From Escherichia phage HEMP5: a DNA stretch of 64,000 nt. The translations under genes were made by a program, and so were the position numbers. Numbering within the stretch: position 1 is the stretch's first letter; every line of letters begins with the position of its first letter. This document shows positions 517-20,587 of the stretch, piece by piece. The DNA lies in sequence record OR424388.1; one strand, 5' to 3'. The notes below the pieces were generated by a model. That model had not been told where the DNA came from. It searched no databases and was given only the letters and a program-made list of their open reading frames with translations.

Positions 517-657
517 TTACAATTTAGCGGCTTTCCAGAGTTGTTCAATAATCTCTTGGTCTATTTCTTTAGTTATTTCATTACGTAATAAAGCAGTAAG
601 GGCTTTCGCCCTTTTCTTATTCAACTTTTTGAGTTGACGTTTATTTAAACGAGCCAT
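517..657 (-). CDS. small basic hypothetical protein (46 aa)
   Basis: ATG overlaps the gene 56 stop (TAATG coupling); MARLNKRQLKKLNKKRAKALTALLRNEITKEIDQEIIEQLWKAAKL; occupies the position where T4 has segF. Confidence 0.4.
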   Translation of the reverse strand: MARLNKRQLKKLNKKRAKALTALLRNEITKEIDQEIIEQLWKAAKL

Positions 658-1175
658 TAATAACCTCGGTCTTGACGTGCGAAATTTTCAGCATTTTTCA
701 GGTAATAAAGTTTAAAGATTTCTTCTGCTGTAAGACCAAGACCTTGGAACATGTTCAGAACGAAATGGAGAATATCAATCATTTCAAACTTAATTTCCAG
801 TTGGTCTTGTGGAGACAAATCAGTAATCAGAGTTTCACGACGTTCACCATGCTGCGACTTCCAAGGTTTCCATACAGCAGATGCGTCTTTTTCACCATTA
901 CTCATACCACCAAGAGAAGTTAGAAGTTCACGGAATTCATCGTCAATATAATCTTTCTGATTACGCAACCAATCAACAACTTCACCGGCAGTAGCCAAAT
1001 CATCAGGATGACGATTATATTCAGGTTTATCTTTAGCTAAACGAATCTGCAGAGATTTCTGCATGTCAAGCATTACCTGCAACGGGTCTTTTTCATCACC
1101 GAGAATATCCCAGTATTCATTTTGAGCTTTATCAGCGCCTTCAATCAGTTGTGAACATTCATTAAAGTATGCCAT
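657..1175 (-). CDS. 56: dCTPase/dCTP pyrophosphatase gp56 (MazG-like)
   Basis: 172 aa from internal ATG (MAYFNECSQLIEGADKAQNEYWDILGDEKDPLQV...); the six-frame ORF is extended upstream through the promoter region. Confidence 0.9.
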   Translation of the reverse strand: MAYFNECSQLIEGADKAQNEYWDILGDEKDPLQVMLDMQKSLQIRLAKDKPEYNRHPDDLATAGEVVDWLRNQKDYIDDEFRELLTSLGGMSNGEKDASAVWKPWKSQHGERRETLITDLSPQDQLEIKFEMIDILHFVLNMFQGLGLTAEEIFKLYYLKNAENFARQDRGY

Positions 1176-1209
1176 TATTTTTCCTTTCAATTCATGGGTT
1201 AGTAGATTA

Positions 1210-1234
1210 ATTATACAATAAATATATAAAGCAA
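1210..1234 (-). promoter_or_regulatory. MotA-dependent middle promoter for gene 56 (MotA box TGCTTTA, 12-nt spacer, -10 TATAAT)
   Basis: Minus strand reads ..TTGCTTTATATATTTATTGTATAAT.. about 35 nt upstream of the gene 56 ATG. Confidence 0.5.
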
Positions 1235-1246
1235 TAAGGAGGACAT

Positions 1247-1447
1247 ATGGTACAAAAATTAATGGCACTTGTTAATGCCATCAAAGGTAATAAAAAGCGT
1301 ATAGCTTTTACTATTTCTGCTATGGTAGGAATTTTACTCTGGAACTTTATTTTATCACCTGTTGCAATTGCACATGGTATTAATATTCCAGTAGTTACTC
1401 TTGATACATTCGTAGATTTAGCATTCGCTTTAGTTGGGTTAATTTAA
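1247..1447 (+). CDS. possible small membrane protein on the opposite strand (66 aa)
   Basis: Plus-strand ORF with strong AAGGAGG RBS 4 nt before ATG; two hydrophobic segments; lies in the 56-61 intergenic region, convergent with primase; no clear promoter. Confidence 0.3.
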   Translation: MVQKLMALVNAIKGNKKRIAFTISAMVGILLWNFILSPVAIAHGINIPVVTLDTFVDLAFALVGLI

Positions 1448-2640: not shown

Positions 2641-3267
2641 TTAACCTCTATTCATAAAAGCATTAAAAATTTGGTCATCAATAGAAACATCTACTTTAGA
2701 CTGTTTTTCTGATGGTAATTCATATCCACATATTACAATTTTGTGATCAATATCAAAATACACAGAAGCAATATGATTAATGATGTTTTCAGTAAAGTCT
2801 AAATCAACATCAATATCTTTTTGACCACAGCCCAAAGGATAAATAATGCGAGTAATTCGATTATCTTTAACAAAGATTCCACCGACATACTCTGTGCTGC
2901 GTTTAAAGTCTACACGCCAACGAAATGAAAAATATTCAGGCTCTTTATGAGCTCTGCTCATAGGACACAACGAGTAACTAGAATAAGAGATGTCAAATCC
3001 TACGCCTTCAATATGAGCCAAAGTATCATGATTAAACCAATTATAATCGTACGCCAAATCCATTAGATTATAATATGTAAAAGGCACCGGATTAACGTCA
3101 TTAATCACAAGCATGTAATTAGCAACTGCTATAATTTCATTGTTTTTAACGAATACAAACCGTGATTGATGCGAATGACCTGGACCCGCGTTTTCACGAT
3201 TAATGATATAACACTGGGCACCTTTATATTTGTATGTATCTTTGCACTTGTGCATTTGATAGAGCAT
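2641..3267 (-). CDS. hypothetical protein at the T4 61.2 position (possible AdfA-like anti-DarT factor by synteny)
   Basis: 208 aa; TAATG overlap with sp; assignment to the AdfA family rests on position and recall only, no motif confirmed. Confidence 0.7.
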   Translation of the reverse strand: MLYQMHKCKDTYKYKGAQCYIINRENAGPGHSHQSRFVFVKNNEIIAVANYMLVINDVNPVPFTYYNLMDLAYDYNWFNHDTLAHIEGVGFDISYSSYSLCPMSRAHKEPEYFSFRWRVDFKRSTEYVGGIFVKDNRITRIIYPLGCGQKDIDVDLDFTENIINHIASVYFDIDHKIVICGYELPSEKQSKVDVSIDDQIFNAFMNRG

Positions 3268-4120: not shown

Positions 4121-5548
4121 CTAAAATTTTAATTCATTCGCCAAAGCATCTAACTGAGCTCGAGTGGATTCATTTCTTTGATAGCGATTCTGTTCAGCCT
4201 GAATCTGTTGTGAACCTGCTACTTCACTCACTTCGGTTGGAGTAGAATCTTGTTCAATTTCTACCCATTTTTGATTTCCTTTTTGAACACCCATCAAAAA
4301 CTTATTCCACTTATTCTTATCACCATATCGTGATTTGATTTGCTTAATAAGTTGTTGTTCAGCAGCTGCCAACTCCTCGGTTTCAATGACCGCAAGCATA
4401 AAATCAGCTGTCGCTGGAAGACCAGCAGATTCTGCGATATCACTCATGTTAACATCGGAAGAGTCCCAAGCTTGTTTACCGACCTGTGCTGCAGTCCAAA
4501 GAACAGTTTCGGTTTCAACAGCAAGAGCACGCAATTCCTCTGCAATAGCTTTAACAGTTGTGTAACTATTTTCTGAATAAACTCTAATGCGGCAAGATTT
4601 ACAAATACCTAGATAGTCGACAATAATGATTGTTGGAACAAAATTCTTCTTGAGCTTCAATTCATTCAAGAGAGACCTGAATGTGTTAGCATCTGCCCCA
4701 CCAGTGGGATACTGTTTAACGATTAAACGACCAAGAGTAGATTTCTCACGCCATTTTTCCATTTTTCCTTTATACTCAGCGTAAGAAATATGCCCATCAT
4801 CAATGTCATCAAGAGAAACATCAAGCATATTAGCATCAATACGCTTAGCACAGACTTCTTCTGCCATTTCCATGGAAATGTAAAGAACATTATGTCCGAG
4901 CTGCAAATAATCTGCTGCCAATGAACAAAGTCCTAATGATTTACCAACGTTAACGCCAGCCATTAAAACGTTCAGTGTCCCAGTCTCAGCTCCGCCTTTA
5001 GTAATTTTGTTTAGAATTCTGAGTTTAAATGGAACCTTACGAGCTTTATTCATATAAGATAGCCAACGTGCTTCGTAGTCATCCATCCAATCATGACCAA
5101 CGTAACTATCAAATGAAATTGATAATGCTTGGCGCATGATGTCAGGAATAGCACCAACGTCCGGCATTTTCTTATTTCGTTTTTCCGGAGGAAGCTCAGC
5201 ATTAGTTTGAATTTCGATTATTTTAGACGTAGCATTAAACATCGCCCTTTGCTGAACATATTTTTCTGTTTCTTTTACTAACCAGCTGTGGTCTTCCGGA
5301 GAATCAGCTAGTTTTGAAATAAGTGTTTTTACACCAGAATATTCTGTTTCAGTAAATGAACTATTTTCTAATGCAACATTTAACGCATTAATAGATGGAA
5401 CGCTATGGTACTCGTTAACATGAGATTTAATTAATTTGAACGTATTTTTAGCTGGACCACTTTCAAAATATTCTGAATCCATATATGGCCAAACTTTTGA
5501 AAAATAAGCTTGATCAAATATGAGATGAGAAAGAATAATTTCTACCAC
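4121..5548 (-). CDS. 41: replicative DNA helicase gp41 (DnaB-like)
   Basis: 475 aa; Walker A GVNVGKS; initiates at GTG 5 nt after AAGGAG; start overlaps the gene 40 stop. Confidence 0.95.
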   Translation of the reverse strand: MVEIILSHLIFDQAYFSKVWPYMDSEYFESGPAKNTFKLIKSHVNEYHSVPSINALNVALENSSFTETEYSGVKTLISKLADSPEDHSWLVKETEKYVQQRAMFNATSKIIEIQTNAELPPEKRNKKMPDVGAIPDIMRQALSISFDSYVGHDWMDDYEARWLSYMNKARKVPFKLRILNKITKGGAETGTLNVLMAGVNVGKSLGLCSLAADYLQLGHNVLYISMEMAEEVCAKRIDANMLDVSLDDIDDGHISYAEYKGKMEKWREKSTLGRLIVKQYPTGGADANTFRSLLNELKLKKNFVPTIIIVDYLGICKSCRIRVYSENSYTTVKAIAEELRALAVETETVLWTAAQVGKQAWDSSDVNMSDIAESAGLPATADFMLAVIETEELAAAEQQLIKQIKSRYGDKNKWNKFLMGVQKGNQKWVEIEQDSTPTEVSEVAGSQQIQAEQNRYQRNESTRAQLDALANELKF

Positions 5549-5557
5549 ACTTACTCC

Positions 5558-5902
5558 TTAAAAGAATTTAAACTTTTTCTTTGACCTTTTATTAAATGCA
5601 TCTTGTAGTTGCATTGTAATACATTTTTCTACATGAGGAGCTAACTCAGCTTTTCTTTTTTGGTCAAGAACAGCAAAGTCCATTACGACTTTTCCATCAA
5701 CCCAATCTAATTTTGTCACATACACAATATGTGTAGAACCATCTTCTAGTTTAATGACAATCTCCTGGATAACATTTTCCATGGCAGATTTAATTATTTT
5801 AAGAGATTCATTAAAAAGACGTTCTTTTCTTTCTTCTTCCCCCTCCGAAGAGGGGGATTCATCGATAATTTCTAGATCTAAATCTAAATCATCTTTATTC
5901 AT
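5558..5902 (-). CDS. 40: gp40 head vertex assembly protein
   Basis: 114 aa from ATG overlapping the uvsX 3' end; the six-frame ORF begins at an upstream GTG. Confidence 0.8.
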   Translation of the reverse strand: MNKDDLDLDLEIIDESPSSEGEEERKERLFNESLKIIKSAMENVIQEIVIKLEDGSTHIVYVTKLDWVDGKVVMDFAVLDQKRKAELAPHVEKCITMQLQDAFNKRSKKKFKFF

Positions 5903-7076
5903 TAAATTCTTCCATATCACTTAACTGCTCGAGGTCAGTTTCTAAATCAGCAGCTGATTTACTTTTACTTTCTGGAGATTTAAATTTTTCAACCTTTGAG
6001 TTAATCAATTCATCAACTTCAGCTTCAACAATTTCATTACTATCAATAGCACCTAACTGATAAGCACGTTTAATAGCATCTCGGAATGGTTGATGCTTAA
6101 ATAAAGGACCCCAGAATGTAGTGCAGTTAGTATCTTTTGCACGCCAAGATTTTTCTTCGCGAATCATCTCGCCGGTTTCTTCGTCAAGAAATTCACGAGC
6201 ATACCAACCATTCTTAGGTTTTACTACAAATCCTAATTCTAGAGCCATATCTAACAATCCAGAATAAGGATCGATACCACCGTCAAATTTAACATCAATA
6301 AAGAATTTACTTTTTTCTTTAACGGTACGAGATTTTTCTACATTTAGAACAAATTGATACCCCTGAAGATCAGAACCATCTTTAATCTGACGTTTACCGA
6401 TAATGAATACAGTATCAGCCGAATACATTACGCCTGTACCACCTGTCATCACGGTTTTACTAAACATTTCAATTGTTTCAATTGTATGGTTAACCGCAAC
6501 ACACGGAATATTTTTAATGCTAAAATAAGGAGTAACGATACGGAATAATGACTTCAGTGATTTAGCACGAGTCATATCTGCAACAGATTTTTCATTCAAG
6601 GCATCTTCCGTTTCTTTCTTAGAAGCCATATTACCGATTGAGTCGATGAATACAATAACCTTTTCGCCACGCTCAATAGCTTCAAGCTGATTCACCATGT
6701 CAATTTTCAGCTGTTCAACTGACTGAATCGGCGTATGAATTACTCGTTCCGGGTCAACTCCCATGGATCGCAAATAAGCTGGAGTAATACCAAATTCGCT
6801 ATCATAGAATAGACAAACCGCGTCAGGATATTTGTTCAAATATGCCGCAACCATAGTCAAAGACATATTTGATTTAAAGTGTTTAGAAGGCCCTGCGAAA
6901 ATAGTTAAACCAGACTGCATACCGCCATCAATCGCACCAGAAATAGCAATATTCAGCATTGGAATTTTTGTACGGATTACATCCTTTTCATTAAAGAATT
7001 TAGATGTAGTCAGTTCAGCAGTCATTTTAGAAGTGGAAGCTTTAATCAAACGGGATTTTAAATCTGCAATAGACAT
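5895..7076 (-). CDS. uvsX: UvsX recombinase (RecA-like)
   Basis: 393 aa; Walker A GPSKHFKS; near-identical to recalled T4 UvsX. Confidence 0.95.
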   Translation of the reverse strand: MSIADLKSRLIKASTSKMTAELTTSKFFNEKDVIRTKIPMLNIAISGAIDGGMQSGLTIFAGPSKHFKSNMSLTMVAAYLNKYPDAVCLFYDSEFGITPAYLRSMGVDPERVIHTPIQSVEQLKIDMVNQLEAIERGEKVIVFIDSIGNMASKKETEDALNEKSVADMTRAKSLKSLFRIVTPYFSIKNIPCVAVNHTIETIEMFSKTVMTGGTGVMYSADTVFIIGKRQIKDGSDLQGYQFVLNVEKSRTVKEKSKFFIDVKFDGGIDPYSGLLDMALELGFVVKPKNGWYAREFLDEETGEMIREEKSWRAKDTNCTTFWGPLFKHQPFRDAIKRAYQLGAIDSNEIVEAEVDELINSKVEKFKSPESKSKSAADLETDLEQLSDMEEFNE

Positions 7077-7153
7077 TCATTTTTTCCATAGGCATCATTA
7101 TATTTTCCTCACTGGTTAAAGATAGAATAATTATAACACAATAAATTTAGGCA

Positions 7154-7996
7154 TTAATCAACTGCTATTGGATGAATAGCATTAAACTTATGAAATGCTT
7201 CTGATTTTTCTTTACGTGAAACGCACATGCGAAGAACCTTTAATGGCTCGTCTTCTTCACCCAACGATTTTCGTTTTTCAATATTAGAAGTTTTCCAACG
7301 AGCTTGCTCTGGAAACTCTCTATTGATTTGCTCAAGCGCTCTATTATGTTTAGAATTACTACGAATTGAACTGCACCCGCCAGGAGCTTGTGCTTTTCCA
7401 GATACAACCAGATATTTGAACAAGGCCAAATGCGGATAACCTTGATTAATTAAATTGAGAAATGCATACATATCTTCGCACAAATCAATTTTTCCATACC
7501 CAATTTGTTCTGTCGTAAGTTTTCCGAGGTCATACCATGTATTCGTGAATCCATATGAGTTTTCACGATAATTACCCCAAGATGAAGTAATTTTAAAAAT
7601 TGGTAGGCGAGCATGACCGTGATAATACCCGCAATCCATGGCATCTTCGACGTATTGAATCAATTCATAGAACTGTTCATGAGTCAATTGATTGACTTTA
7701 TCTACACAACGACGGTCATCTCTTTTTCGCATTGAACTCATACGAATAGTAGTATCATCGTCAATCATCCAGATTCGTTGACCTGCATACATATCAGTAA
7801 TTGCTTTACGAGTACCGGCAATTCCGTTTACATCATCAGGAATAGTTACAATTTTAGCTCTAGACCCATAGGCATCATAATAAGCTTTTTCTTCATGTTC
7901 ACGCACTACAATATGGGGTTCATAATCAGTCGGAAACATATCAAGGGCAGAAACTGCCCCGACACGCTGATAACTTGGAATTACGAATTGAATCAT
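7154..7996 (-). CDS. glycosyltransferase with DxD motif, T2/T6 beta-alpha-gt type rather than T4 beta-gt
   Basis: 280 aa from ATG overlapping the gene 42 stop (ATGA); IWMIDDDTTI DxD motif; no similarity to recalled T4 beta-gt although it sits at the beta-gt locus. Confidence 0.75.
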   Translation of the reverse strand: MIQFVIPSYQRVGAVSALDMFPTDYEPHIVVREHEEKAYYDAYGSRAKIVTIPDDVNGIAGTRKAITDMYAGQRIWMIDDDTTIRMSSMRKRDDRRCVDKVNQLTHEQFYELIQYVEDAMDCGYYHGHARLPIFKITSSWGNYRENSYGFTNTWYDLGKLTTEQIGYGKIDLCEDMYAFLNLINQGYPHLALFKYLVVSGKAQAPGGCSSIRSNSKHNRALEQINREFPEQARWKTSNIEKRKSLGEEDEPLKVLRMCVSRKEKSEAFHKFNAIHPIAVD

Positions 7997-8733
7997 TTCC
8001 ACTCACCTTTATAGTCTTTTTTCACAATATGAGTTTCGCCAGTATTCCACCAATGATCAACCAAGTAAAAATGACGAGAATATACATGAAGACTTCCGAC
8101 ATTCCATATAATAGAACCTGCTTTATACTGACGAGTTGAATCGCCGGCATTCAAATCAGATACTAATTTATCTAATACGTATTTTTGCCATGCATAATCA
8201 TTGCGGAATCCGAAGACCACGTCATTTGAGCGCATGCTTACTACTGCATTTACTTTCTTATCACGAATCAGGTACTGTACTGTATTAGTACACATGAAAT
8301 CTGACATACCATCTTTATTGTAGTCAAATTGCATGGATGGACGAGTATAAATCATGATACCACGCCGAGAATCAGGATTTTGACCAAGTTCAGCTAAACA
8401 CATATCATACTGGGCATAGTTATCTTCTGACCAAATAGCCCAACCATAATTCGAGTTAATTTCGCCTTTAGAAGATGCTACCTGCTGCCAAATCTTTGGT
8501 GTTTCACCTGGAATATCTTTAACAAACAAGCTCTTAGATTTATACCATTCAAGTTCGCGCTGAATGTATTCATCATTAAGAGCGCCAAAAATAAACGGTT
8601 CATCTGCTACAAATGATGCGCCAATAATTTCAATAGTTTTAACACCGGTTTTATCAACTACGAAATCTTTTTCTTTTAATGCAAGCCCCAAATGAAGACG
8701 GATTTCTTCAACTGTCATAGAGTCACTAATCAT
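7993..8733 (-). CDS. 42: dCMP hydroxymethylase gp42
   Basis: 246 aa; thymidylate-synthase-like fold; matches recalled T4 gp42. Confidence 0.95.
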   Translation of the reverse strand: MISDSMTVEEIRLHLGLALKEKDFVVDKTGVKTIEIIGASFVADEPFIFGALNDEYIQRELEWYKSKSLFVKDIPGETPKIWQQVASSKGEINSNYGWAIWSEDNYAQYDMCLAELGQNPDSRRGIMIYTRPSMQFDYNKDGMSDFMCTNTVQYLIRDKKVNAVVSMRSNDVVFGFRNDYAWQKYVLDKLVSDLNAGDSTRQYKAGSIIWNVGSLHVYSRHFYLVDHWWNTGETHIVKKDYKGEWK

Positions 8734-16062: not shown

Positions 16063-17745
16063 TTAAACCATTACAGTAAATCGACCAACTTTCTTCATTT
16101 GAAGGTGCTGACCATATGCTTGTGGGTCATGATCTCTATGCGAAATAACAAAAACATTAGTATTTTTTAAACTATCTAAAATAGTTGAAATAGCTTTTAC
16201 ACCTTCAACATCGGTCGCTGAATCAAAAACTTCATCAAGAATTAGTGTGTTTATTTTAACACCTGAAACTTTTTCAGCAATATCACGCCAAGTAAATAAA
16301 AGAGCAATATCAATTCGTGCTTTTTCACCTTGACTGAATGAAGCATAACTAAAATCTTCACGACCACGGGATTTAATTGTCTCATTAAATTCTTCATCTA
16401 ATGTAAACACATAATCCGCTTCCATTATTTTAAGATAATGGTTAATCTGCTTATTAAATAATGGAATGTACTTTTTAATAATAGCACCTTTAATACCAGA
16501 ATCTTTGAGCATATCAGTCAAAATTCCTCGGTGGTATTTTTCCATTACTAAATTAGTTTTTGTCTTAACAATTTTATCAAGTTCTTCTTGAAGCAGTGCT
16601 ATTTCATCAGCATGGTCAATAAACTCAGAAGATGCTTTTTCTATAGCCGCTTTAACTTTTTTAGCTTTATCTACCGTCGTGATTAGAGATTGCTTTTTAT
16701 TGCGAATATCATTTGCCAACGACTGCTGGGTTTTAATATTATCTCGGTATTCATCAACAAGAACTTTTAAATTATCACGATGTGTTGAAAGCTGTTCAAA
16801 CGAATGCGTGCATTCAGAAACTTTATCTTTAATTTTAGAAACAACTTTATCACCGGAACTTAATTGTGACAAACAGGTTGGACATAATCCACCTTCGTGA
16901 TACATATTAATGACTTTATTATACGAGTCAATTTTTGATTTAATTAAAAATGCTTCTTGACCGATTTTATTAAATGCATCAGTCGGGTCTTCATCTAAAA
17001 CAATATTAACTAATCTTTCATTAGCTTCTTCTATTTCCGATTTTAGCGTTCTAGCTTCTTTTGCCAAATCATCATACATATTTTGAAGACGAGTAAGGTT
17101 GTCACCCGTTAATTTTTTCTGGCGTTCAACGTTATCATTATATATTTTAATTTGTTGGATAATACTATCTTTTTTAACATCAAGCACTTGGTTTTGTGAA
17201 TTTAATTCACGTATTAGTGCTTTATTAAGCTTATCCATTTCAGCTAATGTTCCTACCTCAAGCAGGTCTTCCACAAGCTTTCTTCGTGCAGGGGTCGACA
17301 AACCCATGAAAGGGGTATACCCTGCTGTACCAAGGACAACAATCTGCTTGAAACTGGCATATGACATTCCGATAAGCTGTTCAAATTCTGCTTGGAAATC
17401 TTTACTGCTGGCAGATTCATTAAGACGTGTACCGTTAACGGTGATTTCGAAAACGTTTGGTTTTTGTCCTCTTTTGATATAGTACTTTTTCTCATCATAT
17501 TCCATCCACAGTTCAACTAAAAGTTCTTTCTTATTTGTGCTGTTTATTAATTGACCTTTCTTTACATCACGAAATGGCTTACCAAAAAGCCCAAATGTGA
17601 TGGCTTCTAGCATAGTAGACTTACCACCGCCATTTCGTCCAGTAATAAGAGTTTTTTGAACCTTATCTAATTGAATGTCAATAGGATTTCCACCTACTGA
17701 CATTATATTTTGATACCTAACTCGGTTTAGTTTAAAATTCTTCAC
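16063..17745 (-). CDS. 46: recombination endonuclease subunit gp46 (Rad50/SbcC-like)
   Basis: 560 aa; Walker A GRNGGGKST and zinc-hook CPTC; initiates at GTG overlapping the upstream stop (GTGA). Confidence 0.95.
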   Translation of the reverse strand: MKNFKLNRVRYQNIMSVGGNPIDIQLDKVQKTLITGRNGGGKSTMLEAITFGLFGKPFRDVKKGQLINSTNKKELLVELWMEYDEKKYYIKRGQKPNVFEITVNGTRLNESASSKDFQAEFEQLIGMSYASFKQIVVLGTAGYTPFMGLSTPARRKLVEDLLEVGTLAEMDKLNKALIRELNSQNQVLDVKKDSIIQQIKIYNDNVERQKKLTGDNLTRLQNMYDDLAKEARTLKSEIEEANERLVNIVLDEDPTDAFNKIGQEAFLIKSKIDSYNKVINMYHEGGLCPTCLSQLSSGDKVVSKIKDKVSECTHSFEQLSTHRDNLKVLVDEYRDNIKTQQSLANDIRNKKQSLITTVDKAKKVKAAIEKASSEFIDHADEIALLQEELDKIVKTKTNLVMEKYHRGILTDMLKDSGIKGAIIKKYIPLFNKQINHYLKIMEADYVFTLDEEFNETIKSRGREDFSYASFSQGEKARIDIALLFTWRDIAEKVSGVKINTLILDEVFDSATDVEGVKAISTILDSLKNTNVFVISHRDHDPQAYGQHLQMKKVGRFTVMV

Positions 17746-19384: not shown

Positions 19385-20587
19385 TTATTTTGTAATAATG
19401 TCAAACTGTTCTTTAAAGCAGAAGCTTGAATCTTGATGCTGATACAAAAATTCATAAGCTTTTTCGCGTTCGCGGTCATAAAGAGTTCGATCAGATGACA
19501 GTTCTTTAATACGTTCAAATGTTGATTCCATGTCATTTTCATCAAACCAAATGATACCGCTATCATGCGAGGTCAAAGGAGTATTATCAACACGGAATTT
19601 TAAATTTTCGCCAGTAGATTTCCAAAATACCGGAATTGTTCCACATGCACCAAGCTCGAGATGAGTATATTCTAAAGAACGTTGTAGATATTTTTTATCC
19701 AACTTACTCAACTGATAACCAAAACCGGATTTACTCATACGTTCAAGCATTTCGCTATTTACATAACGGTCAAGAATTTGCGTTGGCAAATTAGAAGCAA
19801 TTTTAATTTGGTCTACTTGATGAAGACGATAATACTCGTATGGAATTCCTTTTTCTTTAATAGGAATGAACGCTGGAGAACGTTCCAGACCTTCCATAAT
19901 AGTACTTAGTCCTGCAGGTTTAAGATGTTTTTCATGAAAATCAAACATCTGATAAAAACCTTTCCATGTGGTCGTACGACCAATCCAACGGTTGATATTC
20001 ATGTTAATTTCAGAAACATCTTTCCAGTAGGTTGACCGAACCTTCGCAATATCCATAGGAGGCTGAAAGTTATATACTGTCGGTGCTTCTTCAATATCAT
20101 CAAACAGAGAAACTGTTTCAGGATACCATTCTTTCATCAGAACTTTATTAAAATCACCATTATCAGAATGGCTAAAAATAACATCAGCTCGACGAACAGT
20201 TTCTTCTAATCCCAAATTTCGGCGCAAAGAAAGAGAAGAATGGTCATGTTGATAAACTACAACACGAACAGAAGGTTTAATGTTATCAATAATTTTTTTA
20301 TAGTTATTAATAGTGTCTTCTTCAACCGAAGTAGCAGGAACTGAATTGATAATTAGAATATCACAATCATTTACCAGCTTAAGTGTTTTATCATATTCTT
20401 TTGCCAATAAAACCGGAATTGAAAATGATTTATAATCATGCGCGCAATTACGAGTAAATGATTTATCTTTAGCATAAACCAAAGTTACTTCATGACCATT
20501 CTTAATAAACCAATCACGTTGCTCAAGAGAAAATTTAGTTACACCACAACCTTCAAGACCTCGAGCCATAAAAATACATACTTTCAT
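19385..20587 (-). CDS. a-gt: DNA alpha-glucosyltransferase
   Basis: 400 aa; near-identical to recalled T4 alpha-gt. Confidence 0.95.
   Translation of the reverse strand: MKVCIFMARGLEGCGVTKFSLEQRDWFIKNGHEVTLVYAKDKSFTRNCAHDYKSFSIPVLLAKEYDKTLKLVNDCDILIINSVPATSVEEDTINNYKKIIDNIKPSVRVVVYQHDHSSLSLRRNLGLEETVRRADVIFSHSDNGDFNKVLMKEWYPETVSLFDDIEEAPTVYNFQPPMDIAKVRSTYWKDVSEINMNINRWIGRTTTWKGFYQMFDFHEKHLKPAGLSTIMEGLERSPAFIPIKEKGIPYEYYRLHQVDQIKIASNLPTQILDRYVNSEMLERMSKSGFGYQLSKLDKKYLQRSLEYTHLELGACGTIPVFWKSTGENLKFRVDNTPLTSHDSGIIWFDENDMESTFERIKELSSDRTLYDREREKAYEFLYQHQDSSFCFKEQFDIITK

Follow-up and report, generated by a model that had tools for sequence, protein, structure and literature searches.

The beta-glucosyl-HMC-alpha-glucosyltransferase genes of phages T2 and T6 were reportedly first cloned by Winkler and Rueger, in work said to have appeared in Nucleic Acids Res in 1993, and it has long been known that the two phages differ in gentiobiosyl content, at about 5% in T2 versus about 72% in T6. 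The TET-associated glycosyltransferase (TAGT) family, in which these enzymes are placed, has founding members linked to TET/JBP dioxygenases, by which hmC is formed in DNA. Gentiobiosyl-hmC is present in both T2 and T6 (PMC6024577). Deletion of the gene (ba-gt) from T6 leaves only alpha-glucosyl-hmC and increases the sensitivity of the phage to the Brig1 glycosylase (PMC11078745), and T6 deletion mutants in which the gene is called g-gt lose the second glucose, and their DNA becomes a substrate of BapA (bioRxiv 10.64898/2026.02.25.707755). Gentiobiosyl-hmC is neither cut by Brig1 nor deglucosylated by BapA, but GmrSD-type enzymes such as BrxU still attack it (PMC13390438, bioRxiv 10.64898/2026.02.25.707755, PMC11078745, PMC13216743).

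The chemistry of this system has also been described in ten new Tequatrovirus isolates that carry alpha-gt and a TAGT gene and have no beta-gt, in which HPLC/MS revealed hmdC, alpha-glc-mdC and alpha-gentiobiosyl-mdC, and no beta-glc-mdC (PMC13390438). In seven of the ten, NR1 among them, roughly one third was hmdC and two thirds gentiobiosylated, and the other three showed proportions of roughly 1:2:2; the presence or absence of dam separates the 1:2:2 group from the ~1:0:2 group (PMC13390438). The combination of alpha-gt and ba-gt is the majority state among T4-group phages and within Tequatrovirus, with T4 and a few phages closely related to it as the exception (PMC8056088, PMC13216743). 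TAGT homologues also occur alongside beta-gt or in the company of no primary glucosyltransferase at all, and their function in those settings has been called unclear (PMC13216743, PMC8056088).

We analyzed a 64,000-nucleotide stretch of Escherichia phage HEMP5 (record OR424388.1), hereafter the window, in which the minus-strand ORF at 7154..7996 encodes from an ATG start a protein of 280 aa plus stop (MIQFVIPSYQR...IWMIDDDTTI...HPIAVD), as seen both in the ORF listing and in the raw sequence. The local gene order is uvsX (5895-7076; PHROG 97), ggt (7154-7996) and gene 42 (7993-8733), which bears out the earlier note's description of a 280-aa gene between uvsX and 42 carrying the motif IWMIDDDTTI, here placed at residues 75-84. 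We regard it as very probable that this ORF is orthologous to the gene for the T2/T6 beta-glucosyl-HMC-alpha-glucosyltransferase (ba-gt, ggt or g-gt; TAGT family, GT-A type) and that it gives gentiobiosyl-hmC by the pathway proposed below. Orthology, synteny, the intactness of conserved residues, the partner genes and the absence of a T4 beta-gt were computed here; the chemistry and the defence phenotypes come from the literature.

In a mechanical ORF call the gene begins with the GTG at position 8002 and is 282 aa long. The ATG at 7996, two codons downstream, is the start annotated in T2, NR1 and Bas36, and a Shine-Dalgarno-like AAGGTGA lies about 6 nt upstream of it. This start overlaps the stop of gene 42 in an ATGA tetranucleotide (7993..7996, minus strand; minus-strand sequence ...AAAGGTGAGTGGAAATGATTCAATT), an arrangement also annotated in T2, NR1 and Bas36. 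Because of this stop/start overlap, the locus suggests a translational coupling of hmC synthesis with the second glucosylation enzyme. A promoter consensus scan around ba-gt yielded 11 promoter-like sites against 9.1 +/- 3.1 in shuffled sequence, which is no excess, and the sole terminator-like hairpin returned by the scan falls within coding sequence. Small plus-strand ORFs of 40-78 aa overlap the gene and were taken as chance ORFs in AT-rich sequence.

Homology searches place the protein in a large and well-populated group. A tblastn search of 50,697 phage records found a match in 688, with 471 at 95% identity or more, the bulk of the latter being Escherichia, Shigella and Yersinia Tequatrovirus phages, many of them annotated with the name beta-glucosyl-HMC-alpha-glucosyltransferase; to hundreds of Tequatrovirus genes so annotated, the identity of the window protein is 98.6-99.6%. 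A second band of homologues, at 60-80% identity in the same search, comprises T4-like phages of Klebsiella, Enterobacter, Salmonella and Citrobacter. The PHROG family that bears the enzyme's name (PHROG 842) is matched at 3e-89 over residues 1-275, and the Pfam TAGT model (PF20691) at 38.4 bits versus a gathering score of 27.5, with residues 3-207 covering profile positions 2-205 of 205. Given the PHROG 842 match and the 688 phage records with tblastn matches, the ORF is not a chance ORF. Neither ba-gt nor alpha-gt has a model in NCBIfam, and a PDB sequence search with the ba-gt protein had as its best result an unrelated PNPOx-like protein (E = 1.5), with no close relative in the copy searched. 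At the level of the genome, the window shares, over 25 kb, 99.3% identity with the Yersinia phages PYps32T and PYps47T and 99.1% with the BASEL phage Bas36 Paracelsus, whose record annotates both an 'hmC beta-alpha-glucosyltransferase ba-gt' and an 'hmC alpha-glucosyltransferase a-gt'.

A search of 1.84 billion cluster representatives (50% identity) yielded 335 relatives at E <= 0.001; from 159 retrieved sequences, 142 homologues of 235-345 aa were aligned with the window protein to give 143 sequences in total. The positions R11 (140/140 non-gap rows), R63 (134/143), D79 (141/143), D80 (143/143), D81 (134/143), E174 (119/143), D175 (143/143), G186 (139/143), G206 (141/143), G207 (143/143) and R212 (137/143) show 83-100% conservation across the aligned sequences, and the window protein has every one of them. 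With its full-profile match to the Pfam family and with R11, DDD, ED, GG and R212 in common, the protein is a TAGT member. It differs from the founding members of that family in that hmC in this phage would come from a nucleotide-level dCMP hydroxymethylase and in that the acceptor would be a sugar already on hmC.

An AlphaFold2 model of the protein, built on a 10-sequence alignment, has a mean pLDDT of 68.7, with residues 1-80 mostly above 84, a weak C-terminal (acceptor) half and values below 50 at residues 126-151. Its N-terminal half consists of alternating strands and helices, and the strand at 74-77 is followed by D79-D81 (WMIDDDTT); the DxD motif recognized in the earlier note lies after this predicted strand, in the nucleotide-binding half, and is invariant across the family. 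The best Foldseek matches to the model are GT2-family GT-A enzymes (TarP 6H2N, TarS 5TZI and K4CP 2Z87), at E ~2e-3, TM 0.2-0.38 and 12-18% identity, with the C-terminal half at low confidence. Since that half is of low confidence and these matches are marginal, the assignment of a GT-A fold leans chiefly on the half that binds the nucleotide, together with the literature.

Roles for two of the conserved motifs can be proposed from the enzymology of inverting GT-A/GT2 transferases. The DDD triad would bind a divalent metal and the UDP pyrophosphate, and D175, within an 'ED' motif, would act as the catalytic base activating O6 of the alpha-glucose. Going from UDP-alpha-glucose to a beta-1,6 product calls for inversion, in keeping with these roles. 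The cellular GT2-family GT-A enzymes are the best structural match to the nucleotide-binding half, share with ba-gt the DxD motif and a downstream ED-like acidic motif, and are likewise expected to invert (PMC13216743); they differ from ba-gt in acceptor, which for ba-gt would be glucosylated DNA.

Comparison with the named relatives supports the earlier note's reading of a T2/T6-type enzyme, for which it had proposed an alignment. The T2 protein (AYD82639.1), the T6 protein (AXN58083.1) and the Bas36 protein (QXV83184.1) resemble the window protein in length (280 aa), in sequence (276-278/280 identity), in position between 42 and uvsX, in the ATGA overlap and in having an alpha-gt partner, and the order 42-ggt-uvsX of the window is found in T2, T6, NR1 and Bas36 alike. 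Relative to the window, the two T2 records carry R11H, V50I, H106R and P251S (4/280), NR1 carries D24N, V50I and H106R (277/280 identical) and Bas36 carries V50I and H106R (278/280 identical), and T6 MH550421 carries Y40N, V50I and D55G (3/280) together with a nonsense codon at position 10 that is specific to that record. The window gene thus differs from those of T2, T6 and Bas36 by point differences only, and has neither the nonsense codon nor the deletion of the two T6 records.

In the T6 record MH550421, codon 10 of ggt is changed from CAG to an amber TAG (3028-3030 of the compared stretch), and because of this amber codon the CDS is annotated from Met20 (261 aa). In the T6 record AP018814, one GAT is missing from GAT-GAT-GAT (around 4735-4745 of the compared stretch), leaving WMIDDTTI in a protein of 279 aa; this 3-nt deletion removes one Asp from the invariant DDD motif. 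These apparently damaging changes, different in each of the two independent records, may be mutations of the stocks or errors of sequencing or assembly.

In T2, both records (MH751506, 4286-5128 of the compared stretch; AP018813, 4283-5125) read CAT in place of CGT at codon 11 of ggt, giving R11H; the corresponding window codon is at 7964-7966. Arginine occupies this position in the window, T6, NR1, Bas36 and all 140 family representatives with a residue there, and an exact-pattern scan of IMG/VR for the context of codon 11 found the His allele in 0 contigs and the Arg allele in 5. We offer, tentatively and as a possibility more doubtful than not, that the allelic state of ba-gt sets the ratio of mono- to di-glucosylation in T-even DNA, that R11H, by making the enzyme hypomorphic, simply explains the low gentiobiosyl content of T2, and that the window phage, having R11, would be T6-like. 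This hypothesis is a by-product of the comparison and confers nothing unusual on the window gene.

The existence of natural or laboratory ggt alleles with lesions (T2 R11H, the T6 amber at codon 10 and the T6 loss of one Asp from DDD) lends some plausibility to a different expectation, namely that the window allele is itself weak or inactive and that the DNA carries essentially only alpha-monoglucosyl-hmC, in a T2-like pattern or lower. V50 and H106 do look private to the window when set against the I50 and R106 of T2, NR1 and Bas36. However, both columns are variable among the aligned homologues (I/V at 50; H/R/K/Q/W at 106) and T6 itself has H106; the window ORF is full length with all family-invariant residues intact; and the enzyme of NR1, whose DNA is about two thirds gentiobiosylated, is only three residues away. 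We therefore consider a weak allele improbable, and prefer the reading of an intact T2/T6-type transferase.

The genes that would supply such a transferase with its acceptor are also present in the window, as the earlier note had observed for alpha-gt and gp42. Gene 42 (7993..8733, minus strand) matches PHROG 160 at 4.9e-67 and the Pfam model Thymidylat_synt (PF00303) at 58 bits, and the syntenic T2, T6 and Bas36 records name its product dCMP hydroxymethylase; this enzyme makes 5-hm-dCMP, the base that is glucosylated later. The DNA alpha-glucosyltransferase gene alpha-gt (19385..20587, minus strand), whose product alpha-glucosyl-hmC is the ba-gt acceptor, matches PF11440 (782.8 bits) as well as PHROG 2888 (4.5e-221), and its protein does not differ at any residue from the 'hmC alpha-glucosyltransferase a-gt' of Bas36. 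Gene 56 (657..1268, minus strand), for a dCTPase/dCDPase that excludes unmodified C from DNA, matches PHROG 173 at 7.2e-46. This match begins at residue 32 of the ORF, and the real start is probably near 1175, which would give 172 aa, the length annotated in Bas36 (519 nt, 'dCTPase / dCDPase enzyme').

In the pathway that we propose, gp42 would produce 5-hm-dCMP and gp56 would remove dCTP, after which the phage polymerase would put hmC into DNA. Alpha-gt would then use host UDP-glucose to put an alpha-linked glucose on about three quarters of the hmC, and ba-gt, as a metal-dependent inverting transferase of GT-A type, would attach a second glucose in beta-1,6 linkage to the alpha-glucose and so yield gentiobiosyl-hmC, with D79-D80-D81 serving as the DxD and E174-D175 probably forming the 'ED' motif of the catalytic base. 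The DNA would be expected to contain mostly gentiobiosyl-hmC and unglucosylated hmC, with some alpha-glucosyl-hmC and no beta-glucosyl-hmC. The intact window allele and the measurements on NR1 make a T6-like pattern, in which gentiobiosyl-hmC predominates, the likeliest one for this phage. The exact ratio of mono- to di-glucosylation is not predictable from sequence: related Tequatrovirus phages with the same gene set stand at either ~1:2:2 or ~1:0:2 (hmC : glc : gentiobiosyl; PMC13390438), and T2 has only about 5% gentiobiosyl. The dam gene was not used to predict the ratio for this phage, since the correlation comes from ten phages only.

That the TAGT family is functionally heterogeneous (PMC13216743, PMC8056088) raises the further alternative that the window enzyme has a specificity other than that of T2 and T6, using another sugar donor or acting on bare hmC or another acceptor. 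Such a change is very unlikely in a protein that is 98.6-99% identical to those of T2 and T6 and shares their synteny and their alpha-gt partner, and by LC-MS ten close relatives show only hmC, alpha-glc-hmC and alpha-gentiobiosyl-hmC (PMC13390438). The T2/T6-type activity remains our preferred reading, and the earlier note's prediction of a glucosylation unlike that of T4 matches the published LC-MS on close relatives, including NR1 (PMC13390438).

In T4, the equivalent interval from 42 to uvsX is occupied by beta-gt (351 aa) together with segA, which encodes a homing endonuclease. T4 beta-gt belongs to PF09198 and has a GT-B fold (PDB 1JG7; PMC13216743). According to the literature it resembles ba-gt in its UDP-glucose donor, its beta linkage and its hmC DNA target (PMC13216743), in addition to the equivalent position; it differs in its GT-B fold, bare hmC acceptor and segA neighbour, whereas ba-gt has a DxD motif and a probable GT-A fold, would take alpha-glucosyl-hmC as acceptor and has no segA beside it. 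A BLASTP comparison of the window protein with T4 beta-gt (NP_049658) gave only fragments of 10-35 residues, the best (10 residues) at E = 0.28; a tblastn search of the whole 64-kb window with T4 beta-gt gave nothing at E <= 10; PF09198 had no match at E <= 1 in the Pfam scan of the ba-gt protein; and a search for segA in the 64-kb window returned noise only. The earlier note was therefore right to call the protein unrelated to T4 beta-gt, and from these searches the phage has alpha-gt and ba-gt, without beta-gt, within the 64 kb examined. That the ORF might be a divergent T4-type enzyme placing beta-glucose directly onto hmC, as its position at the T4 beta-gt locus and the loose labels of some database records ('putative beta-glucosyltransferase' or gene name 'b-gt') could suggest, is extremely improbable, an identity refuted by the BLASTP result and opposed by membership in PF20691 instead of PF09198, by a DxD motif and probable GT-A type versus a GT-B fold and by relatives without beta-glucosyl-hmC (PMC13390438).

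The enzyme identified here decides whether phage hmC bears one glucose or two, and with it the sensitivity to sugar-specific defences; the identification is accordingly of use for annotation and for predicting defence sensitivity. The consequences for restriction that the earlier note expected would agree with the changed Brig1 and BapA responses of T6 deletion mutants (PMC11078745; bioRxiv 10.64898/2026.02.25.707755). Its emphasis needs correction, in that the locus is not unusual and it is the alpha-gt and beta-gt pair of T4 that is the rarity (PMC8056088, PMC13216743). The window phage carries the standard Tequatrovirus modification kit, not T4's unusual pair. The gene is an already annotated, already characterised and routine Tequatrovirus component whose sequence, context and conservation are as expected, and the finding is ordinary because alpha-gt with ba-gt is usual in T4-like coliphages. 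LC-MS of nucleosides of the kind that the note proposed has in effect already been published for NR1, in whose enzyme 3 of the 280 residues are different.

Some further features of the region are recorded here. The ggt-uvsX intergenic region spans 77 nt (7077-7153; minus strand, AATGCCTAAATTTATTGTGTTATAAT), in which, read on that strand, a TGCCTA element precedes a perfect TATAAT by 12 nt. The pair resembles a T4 MotA-dependent middle promoter, which as a putative element would serve uvsX; the listing from the generic sigma-70 scan does not include it. In T4, the dam gene sits between genes 56 and 61. In the window, gene 56 and the primase gene 61 are separated by only 176 bp (1269-1443), a gap that leaves no dam methyltransferase gene between them. 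Compared with its close relative Bas36, the window comes out about 940 bp shorter over the first 25 kb; Bas36 additionally has a small ORF on the plus strand in the interval from 56 to 61, as well as a putative homing endonuclease ORF beside gene 46 (1404-1671 and 16290-17006 of the Bas36 stretch compared).
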